Shown piece by piece: positions 1-30,582 of a DNA stretch of 32,000 nucleotides (position 1 is its first letter; every line of letters begins with the position of its first letter). The position numbers were made by a program, and so were the translations under genes. Origin of the DNA: Candidatus Saccharimonadota bacterium (GTDB taxonomy: Bacteria > Bacillota_I > Bacilli_A > Mycoplasmatales > Hepatoplasmataceae); NCBI GenBank assembly GCA_027925225.1, contig AP027131.1, positions 360,001 to 392,000 of the forward strand. Reading direction: 5' to 3'. Below the pieces are notes generated by a model, which did not search any database, was not told where the DNA came from, and worked only from the letters and a program-made list of their open reading frames with translations.

Positions 1-1115
1 CATGTTTCTGAAAATGAAAAATTAGTATCACTTAAAATTGCAATTCTATTTAATTGATTAGTATTTTTTAATCCTCATATTTCAAGTAAAGAAGAATCAC
101 TAATTGTAAAATCTTTTTCATTAGTAAAAGTTAAATATTGTAATACTCCAAAATAATTAATTGCAACATCAGAAATTATTTTATCTGTTTTTACAATATT
201 AAAAGTTGTTTGATTATTGTTTGCTATTTTAGATTTAAAAATTAAAAAATCATAATTTGAATAATTTTCACTTAATGTTGTATTAGTTCTATCATTAAGT
301 AATTTGTAATCAGGAAAAGAATACCCAGAAATTTTTTCTATACCTGTAAAAATATTATTTAAATTTGAGGGTTGAGCAAATTTTGTAAAAGTAATATCAT
401 AATCAGAAATAATACTCATATAAAAACCATAATAGTTTGAATTATTACTATTTGCAGAATTATAAGAAATATTATTAACCTTTTCTCCAATTAAGTTTAA
501 TCATCCATTTTTAAAGAAATCTGTAGTTTTATCATTTGTTGTAGATTTAAAAAAATAAATATTATTATCTGTTATTGAAAAGGGTAATATTTTTTCAGTT
601 AGACTTGCATCTTGATCTGGAATTAATTGAATTTCTTCTATTTCTTTTTCATCTTCTGTTTTTCCAGCTATACTATCAATTCCTATTTTTAAGGAATTAA
701 AAGTATTGTGGATTTTTTTGTGTTCATTAACATTTTCTTCATTTGCTGTTTTTTGATTTAAAGCAACACCAGAAAGTGATTCTAACGAAGAATCAAAAAG
801 AGAAACAGAAGAAGTGTCTATTTCTACTTCATTTTCAGATAATTTATTAATTTTTTTATTATTTAAAAATTTTTTTGATTGATTAAAAACTTCATTCCTA
901 ACTTTAATTAAATTTGTGTCATTTTCGGCACTTTTAATATTAATATTATTTAAACTAGTTTGATTTGTTTTAATATTAATATTTTCTAATTCTTTTACAT
1001 CTAATTTTTTAAAAGGCTTAGAAAACATTTGATTTTCATTTTTTTTAATTGGTGTAAAATTATTATTTTCTTTATTTAAATTTTCGAATTTATTTGTTGT
1101 TTTTTTTAATTTCAT
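1..1115 (-). CDS. Giant-repeat fibre-like protein family, paralog A. The N-terminal 371 codons are in the window and the C-terminus runs off the left edge.
   Basis: The ATG at 1113-1115 is preceded by AAGAGGAG. Track ORFs 501..1115 and 75..419 share one frame and are joined only by in-frame TGA (501-503, 75-77). I found no TAA/TAG in that frame from 1115 down to position 3. The protein aligns with the modules of the next gene (LESLSG..NQ..A.EENVN.H, LIPDQDASL, GWLNLIGE, SDYDITFTKFAQPSN, SSLLEIW). Confidence 0.85.
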
Positions 1116-1410: not shown

Positions 1411-1447
1411 AAAAAATAAAAAAAAGAAGTTTAACTTCTTTTTTTTT
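1411..1447 (-). terminator. Rho-independent terminator downstream of the 2877-aa gene.
   Basis: There is a 12-bp stem, aaaaaaaagaag (1418-1429) pairing with cttctttttttt (1435-1446), with loop tttaa. A/T runs flank both sides. It lies about 20 nt after the TAG stop at 1468-1470. Confidence 0.6.
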
Positions 1448-1467: not shown

Positions 1468-4400
1468 CTAAGATTTTCTTATATAAACATTTAAATTATT
1501 TATTTCATTTTTGCTTAAATTATTATCATTTGATAATTTTTTTACTAAAGATCAATTACCATAATTTGGTAAATATTTATCACCAACAATGATACTACCT
1601 ATTGGAAGCATTAAATTATCAACCATAGATACTAATGAATTTATTTGTGTTTGTAAATTAGTAATAATATTATTATTTTTATTTAGGACATCTCTTTTAA
1701 TTTGATTTATTTGTAAATAAAATCTTCTTAAATCTGTTTTATTTAATTTTTCTGCTAAAAGATTATCAACATAAAGTTTAGATGTTATATTTGAATCTGA
1801 TTTTGGTAATAATGCATTACCATTTCCGTCAATAATATCTACTCCTGTTGTTAGAACTCTTAATTCTGCAACATTTCCATTTTTATTATCAAAATTTTTA
1901 ATAAATGGAGAAGCGTCAACATCATTATAACCAAATAATTTCATTTCATCATTTTCATTATTATTTAAAGAAGTAGGAATTACTTCACTATTTATTGATC
2001 TTTCTAATCTTCTTAATTTTCTTTGGAATCTTCTATTTACTTCTGCTTGATTGTCTCCGCCTTCAAATCTATTGTTTGTTGTTGGTATTTTTGAAGTATT
2101 TAAACTAGAAATTCCATCTTTTCAAATATGATTAATTCCAAAAATTTCTACATTACTTAATTTATTATCAATATTATTAAAAGTACCTGACAATTCATCT
2201 GTTAATGTAAATGTGCTTCTTCCTTCAATTGAAAATTTATTTACATTATTTAATGTTAATGAATTTGTTGGAATTAAAATTCCTGATAATTTACTATCGA
2301 TATAATAAGAAATAAATATAAATTGATAATTACATCATGTTTCTGAAAACACAAAATTAGTATCACTTAAAGTTGCAATTTTATTTAATTGATGATTATT
2401 TTTAAAACCTCATATTCCAAGTAAAGAAGAATCATCAATTGTAAAATCTGTTTCATTATTAAAAGTTAAATATTTTAATGTTCCAAAATAATTTATTGCA
2501 ACATCAGAAACAATTTTATCTGTTTTTACAATATTAAAAGTAGTTTGTTGATTATTATCTATTTGAGATTTAATTATTAAAAAATCATAATTTAAATAGC
2601 TCTCTATTAATGATGTATTTGTTCCATCATTAAGTTTAGTATTTTCAAATGAATATCCCGAAATTCTTTTTATACCTTTAAAACTATTATCTGTATTTGA
2701 AGGTTCAGCAAACTTTGTAAAAGAAACATCGTAATCAGAAACAATATTCATATAAAAACCGTAATAATTTGAATTATTAACATCTGAAATGTTATAAACA
2801 ATATTATTAACATTTTCTTCAACTAAATTAAATCCGGCATTTTTTAAAAAATCTACATTTGCATCACTTGTTGAAGATTTTAAAAAATAAATATTATTAT
2901 TTGTTATTGGATAAGGTAATGTTTTTGAAGAAAGATTTGCATTTTGTCCTGGAATTAAATTAATTTCCTCAAATGCATCTTCATCCGAAATTTTTCCAAT
3001 TGCATTATTTATTTGTTCTGTAAAAGTATTAATAGTATTATGGATAGCAATATGATCATTAACATTTTCTATATTAACTTCTGCTTGAGTAGAAGCACTT
3101 TGAGTAATTGATTCTACCGAAGGATCAACAACTGTTAAAACTGAAGTATTATTTATTTCACTTAATGAAGGTCATTCAGTTATTAAATCACCATTTAAAA
3201 TAAGTTGAGGATAATTATATACACCAGTTTCTATATCTACTAAATCATCAGAATTTGTTTGAGTTTGAATTAAATAAGGATTTATTCCTTCATTTGGATT
3301 TGTGCCACTGTCAACTGTTAATTCTGAAGTATTTGTTGTTGTTGTTACTTCAATTGTTCCGTCTATTATTCCTGTTACTTGTGTATTTAAAGTATCTACT
3401 TCTGTATTTAAAATTTCTATGTTGTCAGCATTTGTCTGAGTTTGAATTAAATAGGGATTTATTCCTTCAGTTGAGCTTTCTTCGCTATCAATTATTAATC
3501 CTGAAGTGCTTGTTGTTGTTGTTACTGCAATTGTTCCATCTTTTATTCCTGCCACTTCTGTATTTAAAGTATCTACTTCTGTATTTAAACTTTCTATATC
3601 TGTGGCATTTGTCTGAGTTTGAATTAAATATGGATTTATTCCTTCAGTTGGATTTGTAGTACTATCATCTATAACTGTTGAAGAATATGAGCTTGTAACA
3701 ATAGGTGTTGTTCCGTCTATTATTCCTGCTACTTCTGTATTTAAAGCATCTATTTCTGTCGCATTTGTCTGAGTTTGAATTAAATATGAATTTATTCCTT
3801 CAGTTGGATTTGTAGTACTATCATCAATAACTGTTGAAGAATAAGAGTTTGTAACAATAGGTGTTGTTCCGTCTATTATTCCTTCTACTTCTGTATTTAA
3901 AGTATCTAATTCTGTACTTAAACTTTCTATATTTGTAGTATTTGTCTGAGTTTGAATTAAATAAGGATTTATTCCGTCATCTGGATTTGTAGTACTATCA
4001 TCTGTTATTTCTGAAGATATAGATGCTCCATCACCCGAAGATCATGTTTCTATTGTTTCTCCGTTTAATGTTAATTGAGGAAAATCATAAGTTCCACTCA
4101 TTATTTCTTCTAAATCACTACTATTTTTAGATACATTTATTTCCATTGCAAGTAAATCTGTTTGATCTGCTTTTGTTTCAATATTTGATTTATTTTCATC
4201 AATTTGTGTTTTTCAAGGATTTATTCCTTCTGTTGGATTTGTAGTACTATCATCTGTTACTTTAGAAGAATCAGAAGTTGTAACAACAGGTGTTGTTCCG
4301 TCTATTATTCCTTCTACTTCTGTATTTAAAGTATCTAATTCTGTATTTAAGGCACCTACTTCTGTATTTAAATTTTCTATATCTGTAACATTAGTCTGAG

Positions 4401-7400
4401 TTTGAATTAAATAAGGATTTATTCCTTCAGTTGGTTTTGTAGCACTATCGTCTGTTACTTTAGAAGAATCAGAAGTTGTAATAATAGGTGTTGTTCCATC
4501 TACTATTCCTTCTACTTCTGTATTTAAGATACCTACTTCTGCATTTAAATTTTCTATTTCTGTAGCATTTGTCTGAGTTTGAATTAAATAAGGATTTATT
4601 CCTTCAGTTGGATTTTCTTCACTATCATCTGTTATTTTTGAAGAAACTGGAACAATAAAAGGTCATTCTGTAATTTCTTCTCCATTTAATGTGATTTTAG
4701 GATAATCATAACTACCATCTTTTATTGTTATTAAATCTGAATTGTTTTGATTAACAATTATATTTGTTTCATCTAAATCTGATTGATCTGCTTTTAATGA
4801 AATATTTCCTGTATTTGTATCAATTTGTGTTTTTCAAGGATTTATCCCTTCGGTTGGATTTATAGCACTATCATCAGTTATTTCTGAAGAACTAAAATCT
4901 ATAGCAATAGGTATTGTCCCATCAATTATTCCTTCTACTTCTGTATTTAAGATACCTACTTCTGTATTTAAATTTTCTATATCTGTAGTATTTGTTTGAA
5001 TTTGAATTAAATAAGGATTTATTCCTTCAGTTGGGTTTTCTTCGCTATCATCTGTTATTTTTGAAGAATTAGAAGTTGTGACAACAGGTGTTGTTCCGTC
5101 TATTATTCCTGTTACTTGTGTATTTAAAGTATCTACTTCTGTATCTAAATTGTTTATACTAACAATATTTTTTTGAGTTTGAATTAAATAAGGATTTATC
5201 CCATCATCTGGATTTGTCCCACTATCATTAATTAATGCAGAAGTGAAAAAAGATATTAAAGTTGTTCCATCTATTATTCCTGTTACTTGTGTATTTAAAG
5301 TATCTAATTCTGTATTTAAAGTATCTACTTCTGTATTTAAAGTATCTATATTTTCAGTATTTGTCTGAGTTTGAATTAAATAAGGATTTATTCCAAGCGT
5401 TGGATTAATGTCACTATCATCAATTACTTCAGAAGATATTAAAGTTCCAATTTCTCCTGAAGGTCAATCTTCAATTGTTTGACCATTTAATGTTAACTGA
5501 GGATAATCATAAGTACCATCTTTTATTTCTTCTAAATCAGAACTGTTTTGAGTTATAACAGTATTTATTGAATCTAAATCAGTTTTATCTGCTTTAGATG
5601 TTTCTAAATATGTTAAACTATTTTGTACATTTTCATTAACTTCTGCTTGATTTTCTCCACCTTCAAGTTCACTATCTGCTGTTTGTAATTTTAAGGTGTT
5701 TATACTAGAAACGCCATCTTTTCAAATATGATTAAGACCATAAATTTCTGTATCACTTAATTTTCCATCATTATTATTAAAAGTTCCTTCTAATTCATTT
5801 ATTAATGTAAAATCATTTCTTCCATCTATTGTAAATCTATTTGCAGTATTAAGTATTATTGAATTTGTTGGTATTAAAACTCCACCTAAAACTCCACTTA
5901 ATTTATAAGAAACAAAAATAAATTGATAATTAGTTCATGCTTCTGAAAAGAGAAAATTATTGTCACTTAAAATTGCAATTCTATTTAATTGATGATTATT
6001 TTTAAAACCTCATATTCCAAGTAAAGAAGAATCACTAATTGTAAAATCTGTTTCACTAGTAAAAGTTAAATATTGTAATGTTCCAAAATAATTCATTGCA
6101 ACATCAGAAACTATCTTATCTGTTTTTACAATATTAAAGGTTGTTTGTTGATTATTTATTATATGAGATTTAATTATTAAGAAATCATAATTTAAATAAC
6201 TTTCACTTAATGTTGTAGTTGTTCTGTCATTAAGTTTAACACTAGAAAACGAATATCCAGAAATTTTGTTTATTCCTGTAAAAGAATTACCTTGATTTGA
6301 GGGTTGAGCAAATTTTGTAAAAGTAACATTATAATCAGAAATAACACTCATGTAGAAACCATAATAATTTGAATTACTACTATTTGAAGCATTATTATGA
6401 ATATTATTAACATTTTCTCCAATTAAATTTAATCCAGCATTTCTAACAAAACTTGAAGTTGAATTTGAATATGAAGACTTAAAAAAGTAAACATCATTAT
6501 CTGTTATTGGATAAAATAATGTTTTTTCAGCTAAACTTGCAACTTGATCTGGAATTAAATCTAATTCCTCAATTAAATCTTCATCTGGAACTCTCCCTAT
6601 TACATTATTTATTTGTGATGTAAAAGTACTAATAGTATTATGAAGAACTATATGATCATTAACATTTTCTTGATTTGCTATTTCTTGATTTATTGCATTG
6701 CCAGAAATTGATTCTAGTGTAGAATCAACAAGATTTATAAGAGAACTATTACTCTCTTGTCCTCCTTCAATTCAATTATTGATTACCTGTCCATTTAAAG
6801 TAAGTTGTGGATAATTATAAGTCCCTTCTTCTATTGCGGTTAAATCTAAATTATTTTGATTAACAATTATATTTGTTGCATCTAAATCAGATTGATTTGC
6901 TTTTAAAGAAATATCTTCAGTGTTTTTATCAACTTGTATTAAAGAAGGATTTATTCCAAGCGTTGGATTTAAATCACTGTCATCAGTTATTCTAGATGAT
7001 GTTGAAGAAGTTAATGAACTTTCTGAAGATCATTCTTCAATTGTTTGTCCATTTAAAGTAAGCTGTGGATAATTATAAGTTCCTTCTTCTATTGAAATTA
7101 AATCTGAATGTACATTTTCATTAACTTCTGCTTGATTTTCTCCACCTTCAAGTTCACTATTTGCTGTTGGTATTTTTGAAGTATTTATATTAGAGTTTCC
7201 TTCTTTTAAAATATGATTAAATCCATAAATTTCTACATCAGTTAATTTTCCATCAGGATTTGAAAAAATACCTTCCAATTCATTTGTTAATTTGAAATTA
7301 TTTCTTCCGTCTATTGAAAATATATTTTCATTATTTGATGTTATTGAATTTGTTGGTATTAAAACACCACCTAAAACTCCACTTATGTAATAAGAAACAA

Positions 7401-10101
7401 AAATAAATTGATAATTAGTTCATGTTTCTGAAAACACAAAATTAGTATCGCTTAAAATTGCAATTTTATTTAATTGACGATTATTTTTAAATCCTCATAT
7501 TCCAAGTAAAGAAGAATCGCTAATTGTAAAATCTGTTTCACTAGTAAAAGTTAAATATTGTAATGTTCCAAAATAATTCATTGCAACATCAGAAATTATT
7601 TTATCGGTTTTAACAACATTAAAAGTTGTTTGTTGATTATTAATTACCTGTGATTTAATTATTAAAAAATCATAATTTAAATAGCTTTCACTCAGTGTTG
7701 TAGTTGTTCTGTCATTAAGCTGAATATTAGAAAATGGATATGCAGAAATTCTCTCTATACCCGTAAAAGAATTACCTTGGTTTGAAGGTTGAGCAAATTT
7801 TGTAAAAGTAATGTCATAATCAGAAACAACATTCATATAAAAACCATAATAATTTGAATTATTACTATTTGAAGCATCGCAAATACTATTATTAACATTT
7901 TCGCCAATTAAATTTAAACCAGTATTTGCAAAAAAATCTCTATTTGCAACACTTGTTGAAGATCTTAAAAAATAAATATAATTATTAGTTATTGGATAAG
8001 GTAATGTTTTTTCAAGTAAATTTGCAATTTGATTTGAAATTAAATTAATTTCCTCAAAGGGTTCTTCATCTACAACTTTTCCTGATATGTTATTTATTAT
8101 CTGATTAAAATTATCAATAGAATCATTAATATATTTATGATCATTAACATTTTCTTGATTTGCTATTTCTTGATTTATTGCAGTACCAGAAAGTGATTCT
8201 AATGAAGGGTCAACAAGTGTTACAAGAGAAGTTTTACTATTTCCTCCCATATCAGATCATTCTGTAATTGTTTGATCACTTAAAGTAAGTTGTGGATAAT
8301 TATAGGTTCCTTCTTCTATTGTAGTTAAGTCTATATTATTTTGATTAACATTGGCATTTGTTGCATCTAAATCAGCTTGATTTGCTTTTAAAGAAATGTC
8401 TTCTTTATTTTTATTAATTTGTATTAAAGAAGGATTTATTCCAAGTGTAGGATTTAAATTACTATCATCAGTTATTTCACTTGATTTTGAAGCGGCAACT
8501 AAACTTTCTGATGGTCAGTTTGTTATAACTTTACCATTTAAAGTAAGTTTTTGATAATCATAAGTCCCATCTTCTATTTCATTTAAATCAGCGTGTACAC
8601 TTTTATTAACTTGCTCTTGATTATTTCCTCCTTCAAGCGAAGAATCTACTGTTGGTATTTTTGAAGTACCTAAACTTGAAACTCAATTTTCAAAAATGTG
8701 ATTAATTCCATAAATTTCTACATCAGTTAATTTTCCATCAACATTATTAAAAGTACCCTCTAATTCATTTTTTAAAACCACGATACTTCTTCCATCTATT
8801 GAAAATTTAATATTTATATTTAAAGCTATTGAATTTGTTGGTATTAAAACACCGCCTAAAACTCCACTTATGTAATAAGAAACAAAAATAAATTGATAAT
8901 TAGTTCATGTTTCTGCAAATGAAAAATTAGCAGCATTTAAAATTGCAATTCTTCTTAATTGACGATTATTTTTAAAACCTCATATTCCAAGTAAAGAAGA
9001 ATCACTAATTGTAAAATCTGTTTCACTAGTGAAAGTTAAATACTGTAATGTTCCAAAATAATTCATTGCAACATCAGAAACTATCTTATCTGTTTTTACA
9101 ATATTAAAGTTTGTTTGTTGATTATTTGCTATCTGAGATTTAATTATTAAGAAATCATAATTCAAATAACTTTCACTTAATGTTGTAGTTGTTCTGTCAT
9201 TAAGATTCACACTAGAAAAAGAATATCCAGAAATTTTTGCTATTCCTCTGAAAGCATTAGAAGAATTTGAAGGTTGAGCAAATTTTGAAAAAGTAATGTC
9301 ATAATCAGAAACAACACTAGCAAAAATACCAATATAATTTGAATTATTACTATTTGAAGAATTGTAGAGAGTAGTATTAAAATTTTCACCAATCAAATTT
9401 AATCCTGCGTTTTTAAAAAAAACTTCATTTGAAGTAGATGATAAACATTTTAAAAAATAAACATCATTATTTGTTATTGGATAAGGTAATGTTTTCTCAG
9501 CTAGACTTGCATCTTGATCAGGAATTAAATCAATTTCTTCAAATGCTTCTTCATCTGCTATTTTCCCTAATATATTATTTATTTCTAGCGAAAAACTACT
9601 AACAGTATTGTTAATAGAAATATGATCATTTACATTCTCTTTATTTGCAATTTCTTGATTTACTGCAGTTCCGGAAATTGACTCTAATGAAGAATTACTT
9701 AATACTAAAAGTGAAGTATCAGTTATTTCTTCATTAATAGATTGATTTTCTGTAATTTGATTTTTTAAAATAGATTTTGAAAAATCATTTAATGATTTAT
9801 TTTTTATTGATTTTAAATTTAATATTTTTTGATTTTTATTTAAATCAATATTTGTTTTATTTGATATATTTTGATTAATATTTTTTCTATTATTAGAAAA
9901 AATAATTTTCTTTGTTTTATTTATTTCTTGTTGAGAATTTACATTTTTAAAAGTTTTATCAACAGGAATAATTTTTGTGTTTTGAAATTTCCTTATATTT
10001 AATTTTAAGGGGTCTTTCTTAATAGATGTATTTTTATTAATTTCTAAATTACTAGTTTTATCTAAAGTTTTAGAGTTTTTTTTTGTTTTTTCAAATTTCA
10101 T
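1468..10101 (-). CDS. Giant modular repeat protein, paralog B (2877 aa with TGA=Trp). It has four ~330-aa beta-rich 'SDYD...LLGIW' globular modules, a GINPY short-repeat array, and a coiled-coil/tail-fibre-like C-terminal tip.
   Basis: I split every line from 10101 down to 1468 into codons in the frame whose plus-strand triplets start at 1 mod 3. No TAA/TAG occurs until the TAG at 1468-1470, and there are many in-frame TGA. All seven track ORFs (8980..10101, 7495..8250, 7030..7278, 6010..6351, 3172..3555, 2410..2751, 1552..1944) lie in this one frame. The ATG at 10099-10101 is preceded by AAAGAGGGA, with an in-frame upstream TAA at 10120-10122. Confidence 0.88.
3170..5460 (-). repeat. In-frame tandem array of ~170-180 bp (about 57-60 aa) 'GINPYLIQTQTN...LNTEV...IIDGTTP' units. 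It is interrupted three times by 'Y-D/N-Y/F-P-x-[IL]-[TN]-L-N-G-x-x-[IV]-[TE]-x-W' units.
   Basis: The string gtttgaattaaataaggatttattcc recurs near 3265, 3441, 3613, 3773, 3951, 4401, 4580, 5001, 5180 and 5370. The interrupting units lie near 4040-4100, 4660-4700 and 5460-5500. This array forms the 2.1-kb extra length between module anchors 6010 and 2410. Confidence 0.85.
6010..9700 (-). repeat. 1485-bp (495-aa) direct repeat modules inside paralog B.
   Basis: The 'LLGIW' TGA anchors at 8980, 7495 and 6010 are spaced exactly 1485 bp. The 'LES[LI]SG.A[IV]NQEIA..ENVNDH' anchors near 9690, 8205 and 6720 are spaced about 1485 bp. Stretches such as 5941-6120, 7441-7620 and 8941-9120 are nearly identical at DNA level. 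Further copies lie at 1950-3130 and in paralog A (1-800). Confidence 0.85.
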
Positions 10102-10219
10102 ATTCCCTCTTTTTATTATTTATGTATTAAAATTAAATAAAATTTTATTTTAATAAAAATATACACACGCAAAAAAATAAAAATTATTTAGCAAAACTAC
10201 ATAATTATTTATTTTTTTT

Positions 10220-10372
10220 AAATTAACACAATATATTTTTATTTATAATATCTTTTTTTGTTTTATATTCTAGTTTATATTTATTGAATTAAATTTTCTA
10301 TCTTATATTTAAAATTAAATCTAAAAATTCAATCAAAGTAATTTTAATGTTTTTTTATTATTTATATTAAAT
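10220..10372 (-). promoter_or_regulatory. Conserved upstream block, copy 2 (likely promoter plus leader of paralog B).
   Basis: See copy 1. The proximal leader is also homologous: ttattttaataaaaatatacacacgcaaaaaa here versus ttattttaaaaataaatatcacacataacaaa in copy 1. Confidence 0.55.
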
Positions 10373-10424: not shown

Positions 10425-13400
10425 TTATGCTTCTCTTTTTCAAATATAAAATTTATTTTCTTTATTTTTAAGTAAATATTTAGAAAAATCAAATGTTTTA
10501 TTTTCTGATAATTTTCCCATATTAATTCAAATTCCATATTGAGGAGAATCTGAAGAAATAATAATACTATCTATAGGTAAATATAATTTTTTAATAATTT
10601 CATTTAAATTATTAATTTGATCTTGAACATTTTCGTTAATTAATTCTTGCGTTTCTCCATCTTTTATTATTTTATTCATTGATAAAATATTTGAAGTATT
10701 AGAAGTTGTAGAAAGAAAATTTGTTGCATTCATTAATTCTGCTATATTACTTGTATTTTCATCAATTTGAGTTTTTCAAGGGTTTATTCCTTGAAGTGGA
10801 TTTGTAGCACTATTATCTATTGTTAATGAAGAAGAAGAATTTATTTGAATTGTTCCATCTATTATATCTTCTATATTTTCAGTATTATTTGATATAGCAA
10901 CCGCATTTGCATCAATTTCAGATTTTCAAGAATTTATTCCTTCTGTTGAATTCGTTTCACTATCATCAATTAATTCTGAAGTATTAGTAATTAGAGTAAT
11001 AGATGTTGTTCCATCTATTATTCCTGCAATGTTTGCTGCATTTTCTGTTATTCCAATTGCATTTTCATCAATTTGAGTTTTTCAAGGATTTATTCCTTGA
11101 AGTGGATTTGTAGCACTGTCATCTGTTGTTAATGAAGAAATAGAATTTACTGAAGTTGTCCCATCAATTAAATCTTCTATATCTGCAGAATTTGCTGCTA
11201 TGCTTGAAGCATTTGCTGCAATAGCAATTACATTTGCATCAATTTGAGTTTTTCAAGAATTTATTCCTTCTGTTGAATTCGTTTCACTATCATCAATTAA
11301 TTCTGAAGTATTAGTAATTAGAGTAATAGATGTTGTTCCGTCTATTATTCCTGCAATGTTTGCTGCATTTTCTGTTATTCCAATTGCATTTTCATCAATT
11401 TGAGTTTTTCAAGGATTTATTCCTTGAAGTGGATTTGTAGCACTGTCATCTGTTGTTAATGAAGAAATAGAATTTACTGAAGTTGTCCCATCAATTAAAT
11501 CTTCTATATCTGCAGAATTTGCTGCTATGCTTGAAGCATTTGCTGCTATAGCAATTACATTTTCATCAATTTGAATTTTTCAAGGGTTTATTCCATCATC
11601 TGGATTTTCTTCACTATCATCTGTTAATAAAGATGAAGAAGAAGCACCGCCTGAAGGCCAAGCAGTAATTGATTCTCCAGCTAATGTTAATTTTGAATAA
11701 TTAAAAGTTCCATCTTCTATTGAAGCAATTTCTGCAGCATTTTCTGTTATTCCAATTGCATTTTCATCAATTTGAGTTTTTCAAGGGTTTATTCCTTGAA
11801 GTGGATTTGTAGAACTATCATCTGTTGTTAATGAAGAACGAGAAGTTACTGAAATTGTTCCATCAATTATGTCTGCTATATCTGCAGAATTTGCTGCTAT
11901 AGCAATTACATTTTCATCAATTTGAGTTTTTCAAGGATTTATTCCATCATCTGGATTTTCTTCACTATCATCTGTTAATAAAGATGAAGAAGAAGCACCG
12001 CCCGAAGGTCAAGCAGTAATTGATTCTCCAGCTAAAGTAATTTGAGAGAAATCAAAGTCTCCAGTTTTAATTGAATCTAAATCTTCAGTATTTTGACTAA
12101 CTTCAGCACTTAAATCGTCCAATGCATCATCAACATATAATTTGGGAACTGCAGAGCTATCACTTATAGGAAGAAGCACATCACCATTACTATGAATTAA
12201 ATTAATACTATCAGCTAAGATTCTTAATTCTGCATCTTCACTTGTAGTTAGATCTGTTTTTCTAATAAAAGGCGAACCATCTTCTGCATAACCAAATTCT
12301 GCTTCTTGGTTAAGCTCTTCATCTAGAAAATAATCATCTAATTTATCTTCTATTTCTAAAAGTTTAGGATTTATTCCTTCTTCTGGATTTGTTTCACTAT
12401 CATCAGTTATTCCTGAAGAAGCAGAAGCCCCATCACCCGAAGGTCAAGATGTTATTATTTCTCCATTTAAACTAATTTGAGGAAAATCAAAGTCTCCAGT
12501 TTCAATTGAATTTATATCATCGGTATTTTCATCAATTGCAGTTTTTCAAGGGTTTATTCCTTCAGTTGGATTTGTTTCACTATCATCAGTTATTCCTGAA
12601 GAAGCAGAAGCCCCATCACCCGAAGGTCAAGATGTTATTGAATTTCCATTTAAATTAATTGAATCAAAAGCAACATCTCCGCTTAACATTCCTGCTATAT
12701 CATCTGTATTTATATCAATTGCAGTTTTTCAAGGATTTATTCCTTGAAGTGGATTTGTAGAACTATCATCTGTTGTTAATGAAGAACGAGAAGTTACTGA
12801 AATTGTTCCATCAATTATGTCTGCTATATCATCGGTATTTTCATCAATTTGATTTTTTCAAGGATTTATTCCTTCGGTTGGATTTGTTTCACTATCATCA
12901 GTTATTCCTGAAGAAGCAGAAGCACCATCACCCGAAGGTCAAGATGTTATTATTTCTCCATTTAAACTAAGTTGAGGGAAATCAAAATCTCCAGTTTCAA
13001 TTGAATTTATATCATCGGTATTTTCATCAATTGCAGTTTTTCAAGGGTTTATTCCTTCGGTTGGATTTGTTTCACTATCATCAGTTATTCCTGAAGAAGC
13101 AGAAGCCCCATCACCCGAAGGTCAAGATGTTATTATTTCTCCATTTAAACTAAGTTGAGGGAAATCAAAGTCTCCAGTTTCAATTGAATTTATATCATCA
13201 GTGTTTTGACTAACTTCAGCACTTATATCACCCAATAAATTGTCAACATATAATTTAGGAACTGCAGAGCTATCACTTATAGGAAGAAGTACATCACCAT
13301 TACTATGAATTAAATTAATACTATCAGTTAAGATTCTTAATTCTGCATCTTCACTTGTTGTTAGATCTGTTTTTCTAATAAAAGGTGAACCGTTTTCTGT

Positions 13401-16400
13401 ATAACCAAATTCTGCTTCTTGATTAAGCTCTTCATCTAGAAAATAATCATCTAATTTATTTTCTATTTCTAAAAGTTTAGGATTTATTCCTTCGGTTGGA
13501 TTTGTTTCACTATCATCAGTTATATCTGAAGAAGCAGAAGCCCCATCACCCGAAGGTCAAGATGTTATTATTTCTCCATTTAAACTAAGTTGAGGAAAAT
13601 CAAAGTCTCCAGTTTCAATTGAATTTATATCATCGGTGTTTTCATCAATTGCAGTTTTTCAAGGGTTTATTCCGTCATCTGGATTTGTTTCACTATCATC
13701 TGTTATTTCTGAAGAAGCAGAAGCCCCATCACCCGAAGGTCAAGATGTTATTATTTCTCCATTTAAACTAAGTTGAGGAAAATCAAAGTCTCCAGTTTCA
13801 ATTGAATTTATATCATCAGTGTTTTGACTAACTTCAGCACTTATATCGCCCAATAAATTATCAACATATAATTTAGGAACTGCAGAGCTATCACTTATAG
13901 GAAGAAGTACATCACCATTACTATGAATTAAATTAATACTATCAGTTAAGATTCTTAATTCTGCATCTTCACTTGTTGTTAGATCTGTTTTTCTAATAAA
14001 AGGTGAACCGTTTTCTGTATAACCAAATTCTGCTTCTTGGTTAAGCTCTTCATCTAGAAAATAATCATCTAATTTATTTTCTATTTCTAAAAGTTTAGGA
14101 TTTATTCCTTCGGTTGGATTTGTTTCACTATCATCAGTTATTCCTGAAGAAGCAGAAGCCCCATCACCCGAAGGTCAAGATGTTATTATTTCTCCATTTA
14201 AACTAAGTTGAGGGAAATCAAAGTCTCCAGTTTCAATTGAATTTATATCATCGGTGTTTTCATCAATTGTAGTTTTTCAAGGGTTTATTCCGTCATCTGG
14301 ATTTGTTTCACTATCATCAGTTATTCCTGAAGAAGCAGAAGCCCCATCACCCGAAGGTCAAGATGTTATTATTTCTCCATTTAAACTAAGTTGAGGGAAA
14401 TCAAAGTCTCCAGTTTCAATTGAATTTATATCATCAGTGTTTTGACTAACTTCAGCACTTATATCGCCCAATAAATTATCAACATATAATTTAGGAACTG
14501 CAGAGCTATCACTTATAGGAAGAAGTACATCACCATTACTATGAATTAAATTAATACTATCAGTTAAGATTCTTAATTCTGCATCTTCACTTGTTGTTAG
14601 ATCTGTTTTTCTAATAAAAGGTGAACCGTTTTCTGTATAACCAAATTCTGCTTCTTGATTAAGCTCTTCATCTAGAAAATAATCATCTAATTTATTTTCT
14701 ATTTCTAAAAGTTTAGGATTTATTCCTTCGGTTGGATTTGTTTCACTATCATCAGTTATATCTGAAGAAGCAGAAGCCCCATCACCCGAAGGTCAAGATG
14801 TTATTATTTCTCCATTTAAACTAAGTTGAGGAAAATCAAAGTCTCCAGTTTCAATTGAATTTATATCATCGGTGTTTTCATCAATTGCAGTTTTTCAAGG
14901 GTTTATTCCGTCATCTGGATTTGTTTCACTATCATCTGTTATTTCTGAAGAAGCAGAAGCCCCATCACCCGAAGGTCAAGATGTTATTATTTCTCCATTT
15001 AAACTAAGTTGAGGAAAATCAAAGTCTCCAGTTTCAATTGAATTTATATCATCGGTATTTTGACTAACTTCAGCACTTATATCGCCCAATAAATTATCAA
15101 CATATAATTTAGGAACTGCAGAGCTATCACTTATAGGAAGAAGTACATCACCATTACTATGAATTAAATTAATACTATCAGTTAAGATTCTTAATTCTGC
15201 ATCTTCACTTGTTGTTAGATCTGTTTTTCTAATAAAAGGTGAACCGTTTTCTGTATAACCAAATTCTGCTTCTTGGTTAAGCTCTTCATCTAGAAAATAA
15301 TCATCTAATTTATTTTCTATTTCTAAAAGTTTAGGGTTTATTCCTTCGGTTGGATTTGTTTCACTATCATCAGTTATTCCTGAAGAAGCAGAAGCCCCAT
15401 CACCCGAAGGTCAAGATGTTATTATTTCTCCATTTAAACTAAGTTGAGGAAAATCAAAGTCTCCAGTTTCAATTGAATTTATATCATCGGTATTTGCATC
15501 AATTGTAGTTTTTCAAGGGTTTATTCCGTCATCTGGATTTGTTTCACTATCATCTGTTATTTCCGAAGAAGCAGAAGCCCCGTCACCCGAAGGTCAAGAT
15601 GTTATTATTTCTCCATTTAAACTAAGTTGAGGAAAATCAAAGTCTCCAGTTTCAATTGAATTTATATCATCGGTATTTGCATCAATTGTAGTTTTTCAAG
15701 GGTTTATTCCGTCATCTGGATTTGTTTCACTATCATCAGTTATATCTGAAGAAGCAGAAGCCCCATCACCCGAAGGTCAAGATGTTATTATTTCTCCATT
15801 TAAACTAAGTTGAGGAAAATCAAAGTCTCCAGTTTCAATTGAATTTATATCATCGGTGTTTTCATCAATTGTAGTTTTTCAAGGGTTTATTCCATCATCT
15901 GGATTTGTTTCACTATCATCAGTTATATCTGAAGAAGCAGAAGCACCATCACCCGAAGGTCAAGATGTTATTATTTCTCCATTTAAACTAAGTTGAGGGA
16001 AATCAAAATCTCCAGTTTCAATTGAATTTATATCATCGGTGTTTTCATCAATTGTAGTTTTTCAAGGATTTATTCCTTCGGTTGGATTTGTTTCACTATC
16101 ATCTGTTATTCCTGAAGAATTTAAATTTATTGTAATTGTTCCATCAATTATATCTGCTATATCATCTGCATTTGCATCAATTGTAGTTTTTCAAGGGTTT
16201 ATTCCATCATCTGGATTTGTTTCACTATCATCTGTTATATCTGAAGAAGCAGAAGCACCATCACCCGAAGGTCAAGATGTTATTATTTCTCCATTTAAAC
16301 TAAGTTGAGGGAAATCAAAGTCTCCAGTTTCAATTGAATTTATATCATCGGTGTTTTCATCAATTGTAGTTTTTCAAGGATTTATTCCTTCGGTTGGATT

Positions 16401-19400
16401 TGTTTCACTATCATCTGTTATTCCTGAAGAATTTAAATTTATTGTAATTGTTCCATCAATTATATCTGCTATATCATCTGCATTTGCATCAATTGCAGTT
16501 TTTCATGGATTTATTCCTTCTGTTGGATTTGTTTCACTATCATCTGTTATATCTGAAGAAGCAGAAGCCCCATCACCCGAAGGTCAAGATGTTATTATTT
16601 CTCCATTTAAACTAAGTTGAGGGAAATCAAAATCTCCAGTTTCAATTGAATTTATATCATCGGTGTTTTCATCAATTGTAGTTTTTCAAGGATTTATTCC
16701 TTCGGTTGGATTTGTTTCACTATCATCTGTTATTCCTGAAGAATTTAAATTTATTGTAATTGTTCCATCAATTATATCTGCTATATCATCTGCATTTGCA
16801 TCAATTGCAGTTTTTCATGGATTTATTCCTTCTGTTGGATTTGCTTCACTATCATCTGTTATATCTGAAGAAGCAGAAGCCCCATCACCCGAAGGTCAAG
16901 ATGTTATTATTTCTCCATTTAAACTAAGTTGAGGAAAATCAAAGTCTCCAGTTTCAATTGAATTTATATCATCGGTGTTTTCATCAATTGTAGTTTTTCA
17001 AGGATTTATTCCTTCGGTTGGATTTGTTTCACTATCATCAGTTATATCCGATGAAGCAGAAACCCCATCACCCGAAGGTCATTCTGTTATTGTGTCTCCA
17101 CCTAATGTTAATTTCGGAAAATCAATATTTCCACCTTGAATATCTTCAATATCTGATTTATTTGCTCTATTTATTGCTTCTTGATCACCTCCGCCTTCTG
17201 CAGTAGAACTAGTAGCTAAAATATCTGAAGTATAAAGTGTTCCGCCACTTCCGCCTGAAGGTCATTCTGTTATTGTGTCTCCGCCTAATGTTAATTTCGG
17301 AAAATCAATATTTCCATCTTGAATATCTCCAATATCTGAAGTATTATCTTCAATACTTGTTTTATTTGCTTTATTTATTGCTTCTTGATCACTTCCACCT
17401 TCTGAAGCAGAACTAGTAGCTAAAATGTCTGAAGTATAAAGTGTTCCGCCACTTCCTCCTGAAGGTCATTCTGTTATTGTATCTCCACCTAATGTTAATT
17501 TTGGAAAATCAATATTTCCTTCTTGAATATCTCCAATATCTGAAGTGTTTTGACTAATATCTGAAGTATTATCTTCAATACTTGTTTTATTTGCTCTATT
17601 TATTGCTTCTTGATCACTTCCGCCTTCTGAAGAAGAACTAGTAGCTAAAATATCTGAAGTATAAAGTGTTCCGCCACTTCCGCCTGAAGGTCATTCTGTT
17701 ATTGTATCTCCACCTAATGTTAATTTTGGAAAATCAATATTTCCACCTTGAATATCTCCAATATCTGAAGTATTATCTTCAATACTTGTTTTATTTGCTC
17801 TATTTATTGCTTCTTGATCACTTCCGCCTTCTGAAGAAGAACTAGTAGCTAAAATGTCTGATGTATAAAGTGTTCCGCCACTTCCTCCTGAAGGTCATTC
17901 TGTTATTGTATCTCCACCTAATGTTAATTTCGGAAAATTAATATTTCCATCTTGAATACTTTCAATATCTGATTTGTTTGCTCTGTTTATTATTTCTTGA
18001 TTATTTCCGCCTTCTGAAGTAGAACTAGAAGCTAAAATATCTGAAGTATAAAGTGTTCCGCCACTTCCATCTGAAGGCCATTCTGTTATTGTGTCTCCAC
18101 CTAATGTTAATTTTGGAAAATTAATATTTCCATCTTGAATATCTCCAATATCTGAAGTATTTTGACTAATGTCTGAAGTATTATCTTCAATACTTGTTTT
18201 ATTTGCTCTATTTATTGCTTCTTGATCACTTCCGCCTTCTGAAGTAGAACTAGAAGCTAAAATGTCTGATGTATAAAGTGTTCCACCGCTTCCATCTGAA
18301 GGCCATTCTGTTATTGTGTCTCCACCTAATGTTAATTTTGGAAAATTAATATTTCCATCTTGAATACTTTCAATATCTGATTTGTTTGCTCTGTTTATTA
18401 TTTCTTGATTACTTCCACCTTCTGAAGCAGAACTAGAAGCTAAAACGTCTGATGTATAAAGTGTTTCGCCGCTTCCATCTGAAGGTCATTCTGTTATTGT
18501 GTCTCCATTTAAAGTAATTGATGTAAATGGTAAATCGCCACCTATAAGATCTGCTATATCTGAAGCATTATCAGCAATATTTGAAGTATTTGTTGCAATG
18601 TCTGAAGTATTTGTTGCAATATTTGATTTATTTAATTCATTTATTATTTGTTGATTGCTTCCGCCTTCTAATGTAGAACTAACAGCAGTAATATCTGATG
18701 TTGAATAATCTTCTTCGCCAACTGAAGGTCATTCTGTTATTGTATTGCCATTTAAAATTAATTGTGGATAACTAATAATTCCACTTTTAATATCTAAAAT
18801 ATCTGAAGCATTTTTATCAACATTTACTTTATTTGCTTCATTTATTATTTGCTGAGTTCTTCCACCTTCTGCAGCAGAACTAACAGCATCAATATTTGAG
18901 GTTAAAGAATTTTCTCCTCCATCTGAAGGTCATTCTGTTATTGTGTCTCCATTTAAAGTAATTGATGTAAATGGTAAATCGCCACCTATAAGATCTGCTA
19001 TATCTGAAGAGTTTTTATTAATTTCAGAAGAATTTGCTGAAATTGTTTCTTTATTTAATTCATTTATTATTTGTTGAGTACTTCCACCTTCTAATGTAGA
19101 ACTAACAGCAGTAATATCTGATGTTGAGTAATTTTCTTCTCCGCCTGAAGGTCATTCTGTTATTGTGTCTCCATTTAAAGTAATTGATGTAAATGGTAAA
19201 TCGCCACCTATAAGATCTGCTATATCTGAAGCATTATCAGCAATATTTGAAGTATTTGTTGCAATGTCTGAAGTATTTGTTGCAATATTTGATTTATTTA
19301 ATTCATTTATTATTTGTTGGTTGATTCCGCCTTCTAATGTAGAACTAACAGCAGTAATATCAGAAGTTAAGTAATTTTCTTCTCCGCCTGAAGGCCATTC

Positions 19401-22400
19401 TGTTATTGTATCCCCGTTTAAAGTAATTGATGTAAATGGTAAATCTCCACTTATAAGATCTGCTATATCTGAAGCATTATCAGCAATATTTGAAGCATTT
19501 TCTGCAATGTCTGAAGTATTTGTTCCAATATTTGATTTATTGACTTCATTTATTACTTGTTGATTACTTCCTCCCTCTGATATAAAATTAACAGCCAAAA
19601 TATCTGAAGTTAAAGAAGACTCGCTTCCACCTGAAGGTCAAGAATCTATTGTATCTCCATTTAAATTAATTGATGTAAATGGTAAATCGCCACTTACAAG
19701 ATCTGCTATATCTGAAGTATTTGTTTCAATGTTTTCTTTATTTGATTCATTTATTATTTGTTGGTTTGCTCCACCTTCTAGTGTAGAACTAACAGCAGTA
19801 ACATCTGATGTTGAAGAGGCTCCTCCACTTCCGCCTGAAGGTCAAGAAGTAATTGTTTCTCCGTCTAAAATTAATTGTGGATAGTCAATAAGTCCACTTT
19901 CAATATCTGATATTTCTGAAGCATTTTTATCAATATTGATTTTGTTTGCTTCATTTATTATTTGTTGAGTATTTCCACCCTCTAATGTAGAACTAACAGC
20001 AGTAACGTCTGATGTTGAGGAAGCTCCTCCTTCTCCATCTGAAGGTCAGGTAGTAATTGTTTCTCCATTTAAGGTAATTGATGTAAATTCTAAATCTCCA
20101 CTTGTGATATCAGATATATCAGATTTATTTTCTAATATATCACTTGCATTTTCATCAATTGCAGTTTTTCAAGGATTTATTCCTTCGGTTGGATTTGTTT
20201 CACTATCATCTGTTATACCTGAAGAAGCAGAAGCTCCATCACCCGAAGGTCAAGAATCTATTGTATCTCCGTTTAAATTAATTGATGTAAATGGTAAATC
20301 TCCACTTACAAGATCTGCTATATCTGAAGTATTTGTTTCAATGTTTTCTTTATTTGCTTCATTTATTATTTGTTGGTTTGCTCCACCTTCTAGTGTAGAA
20401 CTAACGGCAGTAACATCTGATGTTGAAGAGGCTCCACCACTTCCGCCTGAAGGTCAAGAAGTAATTGTTTCTCCGTCTAAAATTAATTGTGGATAGTCAA
20501 TAAGTCCACTTTCAATATCTGATATTTCTGAAGCATTTTTATCAATATTGATTTTGTTTGCTTCATTTATTATTTGTTGAGTATTTCCACCCTCTAATGT
20601 AGAACTAACAGCAGTAACGTCTGATGTTGAAGAAGCTCCTCCTTCTCCATCTGAAGGTCAGGTAGTAATTGTTTCTCCATTTAAGGTAATTGATGTAAAT
20701 TCTAAATCTCCACTTGTAATATCAGATATATCACTTGCATTTTCATCAATTGCAGTTTTTCAAGGATTTATTCCTTCGGTTGGATTTGTTTCACTATCAT
20801 CTGTTATACCTGAAGAAGCAGAAGCCCCATCACCCGAAGGTCAAGTATTTATTGTTTCTCCATTTAAGGTAATTGATGTAAATTCTATATCTCCACTTGT
20901 AATATCAGATATATCAGATTTATTTTCTAATATATCACTTGCATTTTCATCAATTGCAGTTTTTCAAGGATTTATTCCTTCGGTTGGATTTGTTTCACTA
21001 TCATCAGTTATGCCCGAAGAAGCAGAAGCTCCATCACCCGAAGGTCAAGTATCTATTGTTTCTCCATTTAAATTAATTGATGTAAATTCTAAATTTCCAC
21101 TTGTAATATCTGCTATATCTGAAGCATTTTCATCAATTGCAGTTTTTCAAGGATTTATTCCAAAGGTTGGATTTGAAATACTATCATCTTCTGTTGAAGA
21201 AGAAACAGAATTTGTTAGAATTGTTCCATCTATTATTTTTGCTATATCACTTGCATTTTCATCAATTGTAGTTTTTCAAGGATTTATTCCTTCAGTTGGA
21301 TTTGTTTCACTATCATCTGTTATTCCTGAAGAAGCAGAAGCTCCATCACCCGAAGGTCAAGTATCTATTGTTTCTCCATTTAAATTAATTGATGTAAATG
21401 GTAAATCTCCACTTATAATATCTGCTATATCTGAAGTATTTGTATCAATACTTTCTTTATTTACTTCATTTATTAATTGTTGGTTTGCTCCGCCTTCTAA
21501 AGCAGAATCAACGGCTAAAAGATCTGATGTTGAAGAAGCTCCGCTTCCTCCCGAAGGTCAAGTGCTTATTGACTCTCCATTTAAAGTGATTTCTGTAAAA
21601 CCTAATTCTCCACTTCTAATATCTTCCATATCTGAAGTGTTTGATTCAATATTTTCTTTATTTAATAAATTTATTATTTGTTGATTTGCTCCACCTTCTA
21701 AGGCAGAGCTTACAGGAATAATATCTGATGTTGAAAAAGCCGAAGGTCAATTACTTATTGGTTGTTCATTTAAAATTAATTGAGGATAACTATTTAGGCC
21801 ACTTTTAATTTCTGCTATATCTTCTGCATTTTTATTAATACTTACTTTGTTTGCTTCATTTATTATTTGTTGATTTGCTCCACCCTCTGAAATAGAACTG
21901 ACTGCAATTATATCTGAGGTTGAAGCCCCATTTGCACCCGAAGGCCAAGTATCTATTGTTTCTCCATTTAAATTAATTTCTGTAAAAACAAATTCTCCAC
22001 TTGTAATGCTAGATATATTTGAAGTATTAGAAGCAATATTTGAAGTATTAGAAGCAATATTTGAAGTATTTGTATCAATACTTTCTTTATTTGATTCGTT
22101 TATTGATTGTTGATTTTCTCCACCTTCTAAAGCAGAATCAACGGCTAAAAGATCTGATGTTGAAGAAGTTCCGCCACTTCCGCCAGAGGGTCAAGTATCT
22201 ATTGTTTCTCCATTTAAGGTAATTGATGTAAATTCTAAATCTCCACTTGTGATATCTGCTATATTTGAAGCATTTGTCTCAATATTGATTTTATTTGCTT
22301 CATTTATTATTTGTTGATTTGCTCCACCTTCCAATGTAGAACTAACAGCAATAATGTCTGATGTTGAAGAAGTCCCACCACTTCCGCCCGAAGGTCAAGA

Positions 22401-24462: not shown

Positions 24463-24600
24463 AATTTACTAATATATTTTTTTGAGTTTGTAATTTTATT
24501 TATTTTATACTTTATTTTATTTTGCTTGATTAAATTCAAAACTTAATCAAACTAATTTTAATATTTATTATATTAAAAAAAAATATTTTAATATTTTTTT
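24463..24600 (-). promoter_or_regulatory. Diverged third copy of the family's upstream block (upstream of paralog C).
   Basis: It shares aaattTACtaatatattttt, ttgattaaattc, aatcaaactaattttaat and tattatattaaa in the same order as copies 1 and 2. Identity is clearly lower and the offset from the ATG is 185 nt. Confidence 0.35.
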
Positions 24601-24666
24601 AAAATAAAAATTAAAGTGTAAAATTAAAAAAAGAAAAATTAAATAAAAAATTTAATATAAAAATGA

Positions 24667-24726: not shown

Positions 24727-26232
24727 ATGAAGAAATATTTTTTACTTATTTTAATTACACCAATTTTATTTACGACAGGTTTAAAACAAGGAATTAAAAA
24801 TAATTCTATTGATTTTAAAAATCTAGAAGCCACATCAAACCCATATCTTAAAGATGATGGAACAGCTGTGGAAATAATAGATGAACAAGCAACAGATACA
24901 ACGGCTCAATTTGAATTATGAGTATCAGATAATGAAAATAATGATTTTTATTATAATAGCTTAGTTGCAAATGATGATGAAATTGAAATAACAATTATAG
25001 ATGAAACTGATTCAGATAATTCTATTGATACAACTGCAATTTGTACTTCTGATGTAGGTGCTCCACTTGCATATTATATGTTTGAAATAGATAATTTAGA
25101 AACAAGTCATACATATGAATTATATTCGCTTAATAATACTGGACTTGCTGTTGGAAGTGCAAGCGACGAGCTTGATGATGAAATTATTCTTGCAGATGAT
25201 TTAAATATTACAGATAATAAATTTACGCCAGGCGGAGATCCAATTACTAATGATAATCCTTATATAGAAGATGGGGGATTTGAAATTACTGAAACAGCAA
25301 TAAGTTCAGTTCAATTTCAAATTACTGTAACAAATAACGAAGCAGAAGATTTTGATGAAACAAAATCACTTGATGTAACAATAAATGATTCAGAAGAAGA
25401 TTCACACAATACAACTGCAACTTATGTTTCAACAAGTGGTTCAAATAAATATACTTATGAAATGACAGAGTTAGATGATAGTAGCAATACAGCATTCACA
25501 TCAGGAGAATCTTATGAAATTTATTCTCTAAATGATACTGGGCTTGCGGTTATTAGTGGAGATTCAGAAATAGATAATGAAATTCTTATTAATGAAGATT
25601 TAGGTGTGGATGCATCTTTTACAGCTACTGATGAAAATAGCGGAGATACTGAATTACCTTACATAGTTACACCAAATGGATTTGAAATTGTTGAAACAAC
25701 AACAAGTTCTGTTCAATTCCAAATTAATGTAATAAATAATGATGATAATGATTTTAATGAAAGAAATTCAATTGCTGTTACAATAAAAGATTCACACGGT
25801 GGTTCTTATGATTCAACTGCATCTTATGTAAGCACAGGCGATCAAAATGACACTTATATTTATGAAATAACAGAACTCGATGATGAAAATGGTATAGCAT
25901 TTACAGCTGATGAATCTTATGAAATTTATTCTCTAAATGATACTGGACTTGCTGTTGGTAGCAGCGATTCAGAAATAGATAATGAAATTCTTGTTAATGC
26001 AGAATTAGGAGTTAATGGATCTTTTACAACAATAGATGAAAATGATAGTGATGGTGGTAATGGTATTGGTGAATGATGATTATTAGCATTTATAATATTT
26101 CTTATAATAATGGTTACTTTAGGAATATTTCTTTTATTACAAATATTAGATGATAGAAGATGAAAAAAAGATTTTGAAGAAATTGAAGAAGAAATTCATA
26201 ATAGTTCTAATCATCAAAGTAGTAATCATTAA
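24727..26232 (+). CDS. Signal-peptide, C-terminally TM-anchored surface protein with three ~135-aa 'NPYIE' modules (501 aa).
   Basis: Track ORFs 24727..24921 and 25078..26076 are in the same frame. They are joined through an in-frame TGA (24919-24921) and a checked stop-free stretch. The frame continues through TGA TGA (26074-26079) and TGA (26161-26163) to the TAA at 26230-26232. The N-terminus is MKKYFLLILITPILFTTG. The C-terminus is WWLLAFIIFLIIMVTLGIFLLLQIL followed by the charged tail DDRRWKKDFEEIEEEIHNSSNHQSSNH. Confidence 0.88.
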
Positions 26233-30300: not shown

Positions 30301-30375
30301 AAATATAAAAAAAAATTAGAAATTAAGAAATTAAATAAAATTGAAAAAGATTTTAGTGAAGAATCTAATTTTTAA
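27340..30375 (+). CDS. Signal-peptide, C-terminally TM-anchored surface protein with about 7-8 'NPYIE' modules (1011 aa). It is a paralog of 24727..26232.
   Basis: I hand-translated 27604-28740 and found no TAA/TAG, with TGA at 27601, 27838 and 28489. This joins track ORFs 27340..27603 and 28741..30375 in the same frame. The N-terminus is MKIKNKLFIVSFILFLPFLQIKFF. The C-terminus is ILIYTLLFFIILIVLLLFIISMNIY followed by a Lys-rich tail. The recurrent module is NPYIE..GFEI....SV.F.I.V.NN..DFD....L.VT.KDS...Y.T..TY.....NY.YE..E......YEI.SLN.TGLAVG. Confidence 0.88.
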
Positions 30376-30450: not shown

Positions 30451-30555
30451 GTTGGTGAAGATAACACTAAGGTAACACCTGATTCCATACCGAACTCAGA
30501 AGTGAAGATTAGTCGTGCCGAAGGTAGTATAATGCAAGAATAGGTAATTGCCAAC
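30451..30555 (+). rRNA. rrf: 5S ribosomal RNA (about 105 nt).
   Basis: The 5-prime GUUGGUG pairs with the 3-prime UGCCAAC to form helix I. The sequence contains the conserved CCAUACCGAACUCAGAAGUGAAG core and is followed by a terminator. The ends are good to within a few nt. Confidence 0.9.
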
Positions 30556-30582
30556 TAAATATCATTGTTTTACATTGACCAG

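Follow-up and report, generated by a model that had tools for sequence, protein, structure and literature searches.

What kind of protein is encoded by the 8.6-kb reading frame that occupies positions 1468–10101 of the DNA stretch shown above, and what might it do for the bacterium that carries it? The stretch (hereafter the window, 32,000 nucleotides of contig AP027131.1) is extremely AT-rich, with a GC content of 16–34%, and belongs to the complete metagenome-assembled genome (MAG) Av-JP of 'Candidatus Hepatoplasma vulgare', which was assembled by Kawato et al. 2024 (Access Microbiology, PMC10928387). The organism, a mollicute of the woodlouse gut, is regarded as an ectosymbiont of the hepatopancreas epithelium. 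Our open reading frame (ORF) B is the middle one of three adjacent giant genes A, B and C on the same strand, which encode 2,838, 2,877 and 4,617 amino acids (aa), respectively. Giant tandem ORFs are an already published feature of this bacterial family, hence their appearance here is a rediscovery. Our favoured, though tentative, reading is that ORF B encodes a non-enzymatic, very elongated structural fibre protein which, together with its paralogs A and C, may mediate attachment of the wall-less cell to the host hepatopancreas epithelium.

Reading frame and anatomy of ORF B

Under genetic code table 11 the region 1468–10101 is broken into ORFs of 113–373 aa, whereas table 4 yields one continuous minus-strand ORF, 2,877 codons long without the stop, the giant ORF that the first-pass annotation of this DNA had called. 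All 22 TGA codons lie in frame as Trp, with no TGG codon in the gene, and translation with table 4 gives a protein that matches the NCBI entry HPAVJP_3230 from MAG Av-JP along its entire length at 100% identity; the fragmenting table-11 reading was rejected on these grounds. From base composition, the chance probability of an 8.6-kb frame free of TAA and TAG in such 25%-GC DNA is ~1e-100. Since the frame is so improbable by chance and identical to an annotated MAG protein, ORF B is a real, maintained gene, intact and under selection. Its product is acidic (isoelectric point (pI) 4.2), rich in N, T, S, D and I, and contains three Cys residues. The gene and its parts are as follows.

1468–10101, minus strand: ORF B (HPAVJP_3230), 2,877 aa, genetic code 4, stop codon TAG at 1468–1470
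9727–10101, minus strand: N-terminal Lys/Asn-rich basic region, aa 1–125, pI 10.2, without a hydrophobic segment
8242–9726, minus strand: period unit 1, aa 126–620, module core at aa 126–504
6757–8241, minus strand: period unit 2, aa 621–1115, exactly 1,485 bp from unit 1
5455–6756, minus strand: module 3, aa 1116–1549, exactly 1,485 bp from unit 2, its tail carrying a 27-aa insertion and continuous with the array
3157–5454, minus strand: GINP[YW] array, aa 1550–2315, 12 units of 52–84 aa
2020–3156, minus strand: module 4, aa 2316–2694, the most divergent B copy (63–68% aa identity to the others)
1471–2019, minus strand: C-terminal region, aa 2695–2877 (183 aa)

The chain thus holds four copies of a ~380-aa module, which begin at aa 126, 621, 1116 and 2316; three of them stand in tandem and are followed by the 2.3-kb array and then by the fourth. 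Repeat finding and protein comparison bear out the four paralogous modules, the presence of the same module in paralog A and the exact 1485-bp period, all of which had been proposed from the sequence at first pass: the repeat families (D3, D5 and D7–D11) recur at spacings of 3600, 1485 and 1485 bp, with a fifth copy in paralog A at 1–988. The anchor positions given for this period (8980, 7495, 6010, 2410 and 75) prove to be the codons directly after the in-frame TGA that encodes W in the motif 'LLGIW|GFKNN'. The other motifs listed for the module are also present, except that 'LPYPITNN.YF' has to be written with two variable positions (LPYPITNNDVYF).

Each period unit runs from an LES.SG..NQ motif through a predicted helix of ~30 aa and a beta-rich core of ~290 aa to a tail of short LEGG.NQ, PQL/W, GINPS and PQL/W units. 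These tail motifs (LEGG.NQ, '..YPQLTLNG..I..W(PSG)' and 'ITDDS..NP..GINP') are the same building blocks as those of the neighbouring ORF C. Inside module 2, 'TLSESYLNYDFLII' at aa ~735–752 resembles 'FVFSETWTNYQFIFV' at aa ~822–839 (hhalign E = 0.016 over 18 aa), a weak similarity which hints that the module may hold two related sub-domains ~87 aa apart.

The array has the annotated length of 2.3 kb, and its measured bounds (3157–5454) replace the earlier ones (3170–5460). Each of its units consists of an acidic loop (ITDDS..NP.EGINPY), two to three coiled-coil heptads (VDTLNTE; a = V, d = L) and a GIIDGT turn, and the heptads are visible in the DNA itself as a 21-nucleotide (nt) tandem repeat at 5290–5348. 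Units 4, 7 and 12 additionally hold a PQL..LNG..I..W unit, and one further GINP unit is found in each of the two other inter-module linkers. The C-terminal region comprises an 'FGY...LYVDNLL' unit, a predicted helical stretch and a terminal 'LPIGSIIVG..YGNW...YIRKS' domain that is common to A, B and C.

A short AT-rich hairpin, AAGAAGTT-AA-ACTTCTT, with a T-run behind it, lies just after the ORF B stop (~1411–1440, minus strand) and is plausibly a weak intrinsic terminator, below the GC-pair criterion of the scan used. Scanning the intergenic regions for consensus promoters and terminators gives no useful information in such AT-rich DNA. Many long code-4 antisense ORFs lie opposite ORFs C and B (10450–23358, 3204–3656 and 9485–10150, all on the plus strand), the longest reaching up to 644 codons (15301–17232, plus strand). 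These frames most likely reflect the repeats and the skewed composition rather than genes.

Paralog A and the history of the copies

The paralog that follows ORF B allows the age of its repeats to be judged.

1–1115, minus strand: 5′ part of paralog A (HPAVJP_3220, BDV02433.1, P0001), 2,838 aa in full, running off the window

The window portion covers the N-terminal region of A and most of its first module. Comparison of the complete proteins showed A and B, at about 60% aa identity, to be co-linear, with four modules, 14 GINP motifs and 8 PQL units arranged identically in both. The 12 array units can be paired one by one, with lengths in A and B of 66/64, 59/59, 59/59, 84/82, 59/59, 66/66, 85/84, 59/59, 52/52, 59/59, 57/59 and 61/58 aa. 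Because the 12 units of the two paralogs agree in order and in length, the array must be older than the A/B duplication and has kept its structure since then. The first-pass statement that one linker of ORF B has been expanded by the array, in so far as it suggests a recent event, is therefore not supported, and the conserved array also argues against rapid copy-number change in ORF B.

The modules themselves have a more complex record. Module pairs inside B share 63–73% identity in protein and 77–84% in DNA. The near-identical DNA segments noted earlier do exist in the central third of the module, where 90-nt windows reach 94–97% identity and the longest exact run is 76 nt, but as a description of whole modules the phrase was overstated. 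We have used Nei-Gojobori estimates of the synonymous divergence (dS) and of the ratio of nonsynonymous to synonymous divergence (dN/dS) along the modules, here denoted M1–M4 for B and A1 for the first module of A. For module aa 180–215, dS is 0.5–1.0 in most pairs (M1–M3, 0.05; A1–M3, 0.31) with a dN/dS of 0.04–0.12, which we read as an old duplication under strong purifying selection. For aa 215–300, dS falls to 0.09–0.21 in all pairs, including those with A1, with a dN/dS of 0.4–1.1, and we read this part as recently homogenised. The module flanks, with a dS of 0.2–1.0 and a dN/dS of 0.45–1.3, are read as relaxed or diversifying. Over the whole module dN/dS is 0.5–0.75, with patches near 1.

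Since dS varies so patchily along the module (from about 0.05 to 1.0), these estimates indicate old duplications overlaid by patchy gene conversion, both within and between genes. Of the two origins that had been offered for the similar segments, recent duplication or gene conversion, it is the latter that the dS mosaic supports. The matrix of module identities (56–70% between A and B, 63–73% within B), in which positional orthology is not seen, likewise fits partial concerted evolution.

Homology searches and fold prediction

To what, then, is the module related? When the first 248 aa of the module were compared exhaustively by HMMER with 1.84 billion cluster representatives, the only match was P0001, which is paralog A of this genome. 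This is the strongest of the negative homology results, and by these searches the ~380-aa module is an orphan restricted to this species. Pattern and tblastn scans with the module through GTDB genomes, IMG/VR and JGI metagenomes returned no relatives; an alignment of the short units found none in viral contigs, and a 223-aa segment of ORF C none in metagenome contigs. A word-indexed protein search with the module and an alignment of the C-terminus also gave no match, a result of little weight, as the same search missed self-matches of sub-fragments.

Profile searches led to a similar picture. With the module, array, termini and ORF C units as queries, Pfam, PHROGs and NCBIfam gave only sub-threshold coiled-coil or compositional matches, such as the weak ones to the coiled-coil families LPP (E = 0.0017) and NPV_P10. 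No enzyme family was matched in Pfam, NCBIfam or the PDB, and searches of the module, the array, the termini and full-length A and B with Pfam and NCBIfam showed no RTX nonapeptides, no BIg repeats and none of the YadA domains (head, stalk, anchor). No genuine match emerged from sequence and profile searches of the PDB, in which the C-terminus and full-length B were among the queries; PDB matches to Tako8 and LRR/PRL entries were dismissed as compositional or as covering a single motif.

Structure prediction was not successful. AlphaFold2 gave a mean predicted local distance difference test (pLDDT) score of 34 for the N-terminal half of the module. For the 296-aa module core, modelled from an alignment of 8 copies, the pLDDT was 46 and the predicted template modelling (pTM) score 0.40, with mostly beta strands. 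A Foldseek search of this model against the PDB and BFVD yielded no significant match, and at a pLDDT of 46 such matches are uninterpretable. The lectin or LamG-like fold suggested at first pass found no Pfam match at E ⩽ 1 and nothing below E = 0.45 in the PDB profile search, with the module model standing at the same low pLDDT.

Candidate functions of the giant proteins

We favour an attachment fibre because the protein has no enzyme signature, is fibrous in build, evolves fast and is restricted to one species, has surface-protein genes as neighbours and comes from an ectosymbiont. In such a fibre the four beta-rich modules would be knobs, possibly ligand-binding ones, and the coiled-coil heptads, GINP loops and PQL/W units would be rigid spacers that set its length and probably drive oligomerisation, with the array serving as a fixed-length spacer. 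Docking would fall to the two fibre ends, namely the basic ~100-aa N-terminus and the C-terminal domain common to the giants. The fibre shape, the oligomerisation, the extracellular location and the adhesion are inferred, and so is a 'binding' role for the modules. A high dN/dS and restriction to one species are typical of host-interface proteins. ORF B resembles bacterial fibrillar adhesins in its size of several thousand residues, tandem-repeat stalk, beta-rich modules, acidic Cys-poor composition and fast evolution. Unlike them, it has no signal peptide, sortase (LPXTG) motif, transmembrane (TM) anchor, type I secretion or RTX signature, or known stalk or adhesive Pfam domain, and its globular module is present four times along the chain, not once at the tip.

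The genes around ORF B bear on these possibilities and are listed here.

10425–24278, minus strand: ORF C, a paralog of 4,617 aa built from the same kinds of short unit, lacking the large module and sharing the C-terminal domain
10228–10357 (before B), 1239–1368 (before A) and ~24500–24610 (before C, weaker), minus strand: conserved element of ~115–130 nt
24727–26232 and 27340–30375, plus strand: genes D and F, encoding paralogous orphan surface proteins of 501 and 1,011 aa, divergent from A–C
30451–30556, plus strand: lone 5S rRNA gene (Rfam RF00001, 73.6 bits)
31535–31999, plus strand: gatA, an amidase fragment

Proteins D and F, neither of which matches Pfam, both have a signal peptide together with a TM anchor at the C-terminus; their repeats are of ~135 aa ('NPYIE..GFEI...NN..DF'), with a 405-nt tandem period at 25276–26043. 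The 5S rRNA gene is flanked by genes for orphan membrane proteins, and the window contains neither a 16S nor a 23S gene. The giants are bordered by orphan membrane or coiled-coil proteins, the 5S rRNA gene and gatA, which in relatives is followed by gatB. The gatA fragment is nearest to those of Ca. H. crinochetorum (60%), Ca. H. scabrum and Ca. Tyloplasma litorale. The relatives' gatA loci show no giant ORFs within 10 kb upstream, so that the giant-ORF cluster is not syntenic across the Hepatoplasmataceae at this position. The element upstream of A and B is found 120–260 nt before their start codons, contains blocks of >90% identity and is far better conserved than the neighbouring 5′ coding sequence; it is possibly a shared promoter, regulatory region or leader.

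Several observations weigh against an attachment fibre on the cell surface. None of A, B and C has a signal peptide, lipobox or TM segment. Their maximum 19-aa Kyte-Doolittle scores are 1.3–2.0, compared with 3.2–3.4 for the anchors of D and F, and values above 1.6 occur only in segments of the module or of the C-terminal domain that are not shared by every copy. Only 6 codons separate the ORF B start from the nearest upstream stop. Mollicutes are known to export proteins through Sec. All three giants open with Lys/Asn-rich basic regions of ~85–125 aa and pI 9.7–10.2 (9727–10101 in B, 829–1115 in A and ~24024–24278 in C). In addition, Pfam, the PDB, AlphaFold2 and Foldseek provided neither a confident fold nor a similarity to any adhesin domain. 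The absence of a signal peptide or membrane anchor in A, B and C in particular fits poorly with a simple adhesin.

This absence of a signal peptide, lipobox and TM segment keeps alive a second explanation, in which A, B and C would be cytoplasmic and form the core of a stalk-like Hepatoplasma appendage, as an intracellular cytoskeletal fibre. They would then be analogous to HMW1–3 and P200 of the Mycoplasma pneumoniae attachment organelle, which are cytoskeletal and have no signal peptides. The repeats and coiled coils would give the required fibrous build, the unit lengths conserved between the A and B arrays are as expected for a structural ruler, and the genus is reportedly 'stalk-forming', being so named in the title of Wang et al. 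2004. However, the searches detected neither an EAGR box nor any other domain of terminal organelles, and the species restriction, fast evolution and dN/dS of 0.5–0.75 better match interface proteins. We consider a cytoskeletal role somewhat unlikely. Among other giants of mollicute motility and attachment, Gli349 and Gli521 of Mycoplasma mobile are tandemly encoded and repeat-rich, contact the host surface and have TM segments. Our proteins are like this group in having tandem giant genes (about 3,000 and 4,600 aa) in a related bacterial order, and unlike it in showing no sequence similarity in any search and no TM, EAGR or APR features in A, B and C. A broader statement, to which we give a little less credence still, is that A, B and C are not classical adhesins at all, being either a titin-like internal stalk skeleton or surface proteins that leave by a Sec-independent route not known in Mollicutes; the module would then be a new beta-rich fold of this species only.

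A third explanation, close to the emphasis of the first pass, is that the tandem modules and paralogs serve mainly to generate mosaic or size variants of a surface antigen by recombination. ORF C is the most recombination-prone gene of the window. It is built entirely of ~61-aa PQL/WPSG+GINPW units, LEGG.NQ units and five 'FGY...LYVDNLL' units, a 618-bp (206-aa) stretch stands in four tandem copies with the same protein sequence, and its GC content is 31–34% against 16–26% in the surrounding DNA. A dedicated variation system is plausible for ORF C on this repeat pattern. For ORF B, conversion among its four modules and A1 (dS 0.05–0.2 in the tracts, 0.5–1.0 elsewhere) and exact runs of up to 76 nt could be read in the same way. 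Against this, A and B have not changed since their duplication in the number of modules or in the number, order and lengths of units, and this architectural stability contradicts a variation system in ORF B. No lipoprotein signal, promoter homopolymer switch or inverted recombination site was seen. The three genes are co-oriented, the upstream elements are direct and form no inverted pair, and the window holds no recombinase gene, unlike Vsp-, Vlp-, Vsa- or Vpma-type systems; the MAG authors describe clonal populations. A variable antigen system is thus quite unlikely as the main function.

Phage tail fibres and trimeric coiled-coil fibres (trimeric autotransporter adhesin stalks, Lpp) share with ORF B the alternation of coiled-coil segments with beta connectors and the distinct N- and C-terminal docking domains; they differ from it in that the matches are sub-threshold only (phrog_8378, E = 0.013; LPP, E = 0.0017) and that YadA domains and a phage context are missing. 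Descent from a phage tail fibre or tailocin, which through lysis release or particle assembly would need no signal peptide, is very improbable: it would explain the layout of shaft, knobs and C-terminal tip, the weak 76-aa match of the FGY..YVDNLL unit to the tail-fibre family phrog_8378 and several tail-fibre entries among the non-significant BFVD matches, but the latter rest on the uninterpretable pLDDT-46 model, tblastn against 50,697 phage genomes was empty for the module and C-terminus (both even at E ⩽ 1) and for the ORF C units, two IMG/VR scans and the remaining PHROG scans were negative, and the window contains no phage structural, integrase or lysis genes.

The attachment fibre, which we continue to prefer, agrees with what has been published on the family. 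According to Kawato et al. 2024 (PMC10928387), every Hepatoplasmataceae genome has three to four giant repetitive ORFs in tandem, which are closest to paralogs of their own genome and contain repeats of 11–195 aa as defined by MEME; host adhesion for an ectosymbiotic lifestyle was proposed as their role. The ORFs of relatives (for example HCTKY_2320, HPPSJP_2240/2440 and TYPL_3910) are the same phenomenon as ours, and for H. vulgare the genes are the very same ones. Like them, A, B and C form a tandem cluster with internal repeats and are most similar to paralogs of their own genome. In other Hepatoplasmataceae species repeat domains of 100–195 aa could be modelled, as immunoglobulin-like or novel beta-sandwich folds, whereas the H. 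vulgare units resisted modelling both here and in that study. Our genes also differ from those of the relatives in the ~380-aa module, which has no detectable relative outside the species, and in the lack of synteny of the cluster at gatA.

Taken together, the results for H. vulgare usefully refine a known observation without amounting to a discovery. What appears to be added, judged against the available part of PMC10928387, is a species-restricted orphan module of ~380 aa repeated four times in each of two paralogs, the co-linearity of A and B with unit-for-unit conservation of the spacers, the patchy conversion mosaic and the absence of export signals in all three giants; the term 'signal peptide' is never mentioned in the paper. 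The absence of export signals bears on whether A, B and C are surface adhesins or internal components of a stalk. Members of the Hepatoplasmataceae, which have not been cultured, live widely in the guts of isopods and other crustaceans as symbionts, and their giant tandem ORFs are the main published candidates for the attachment interface.

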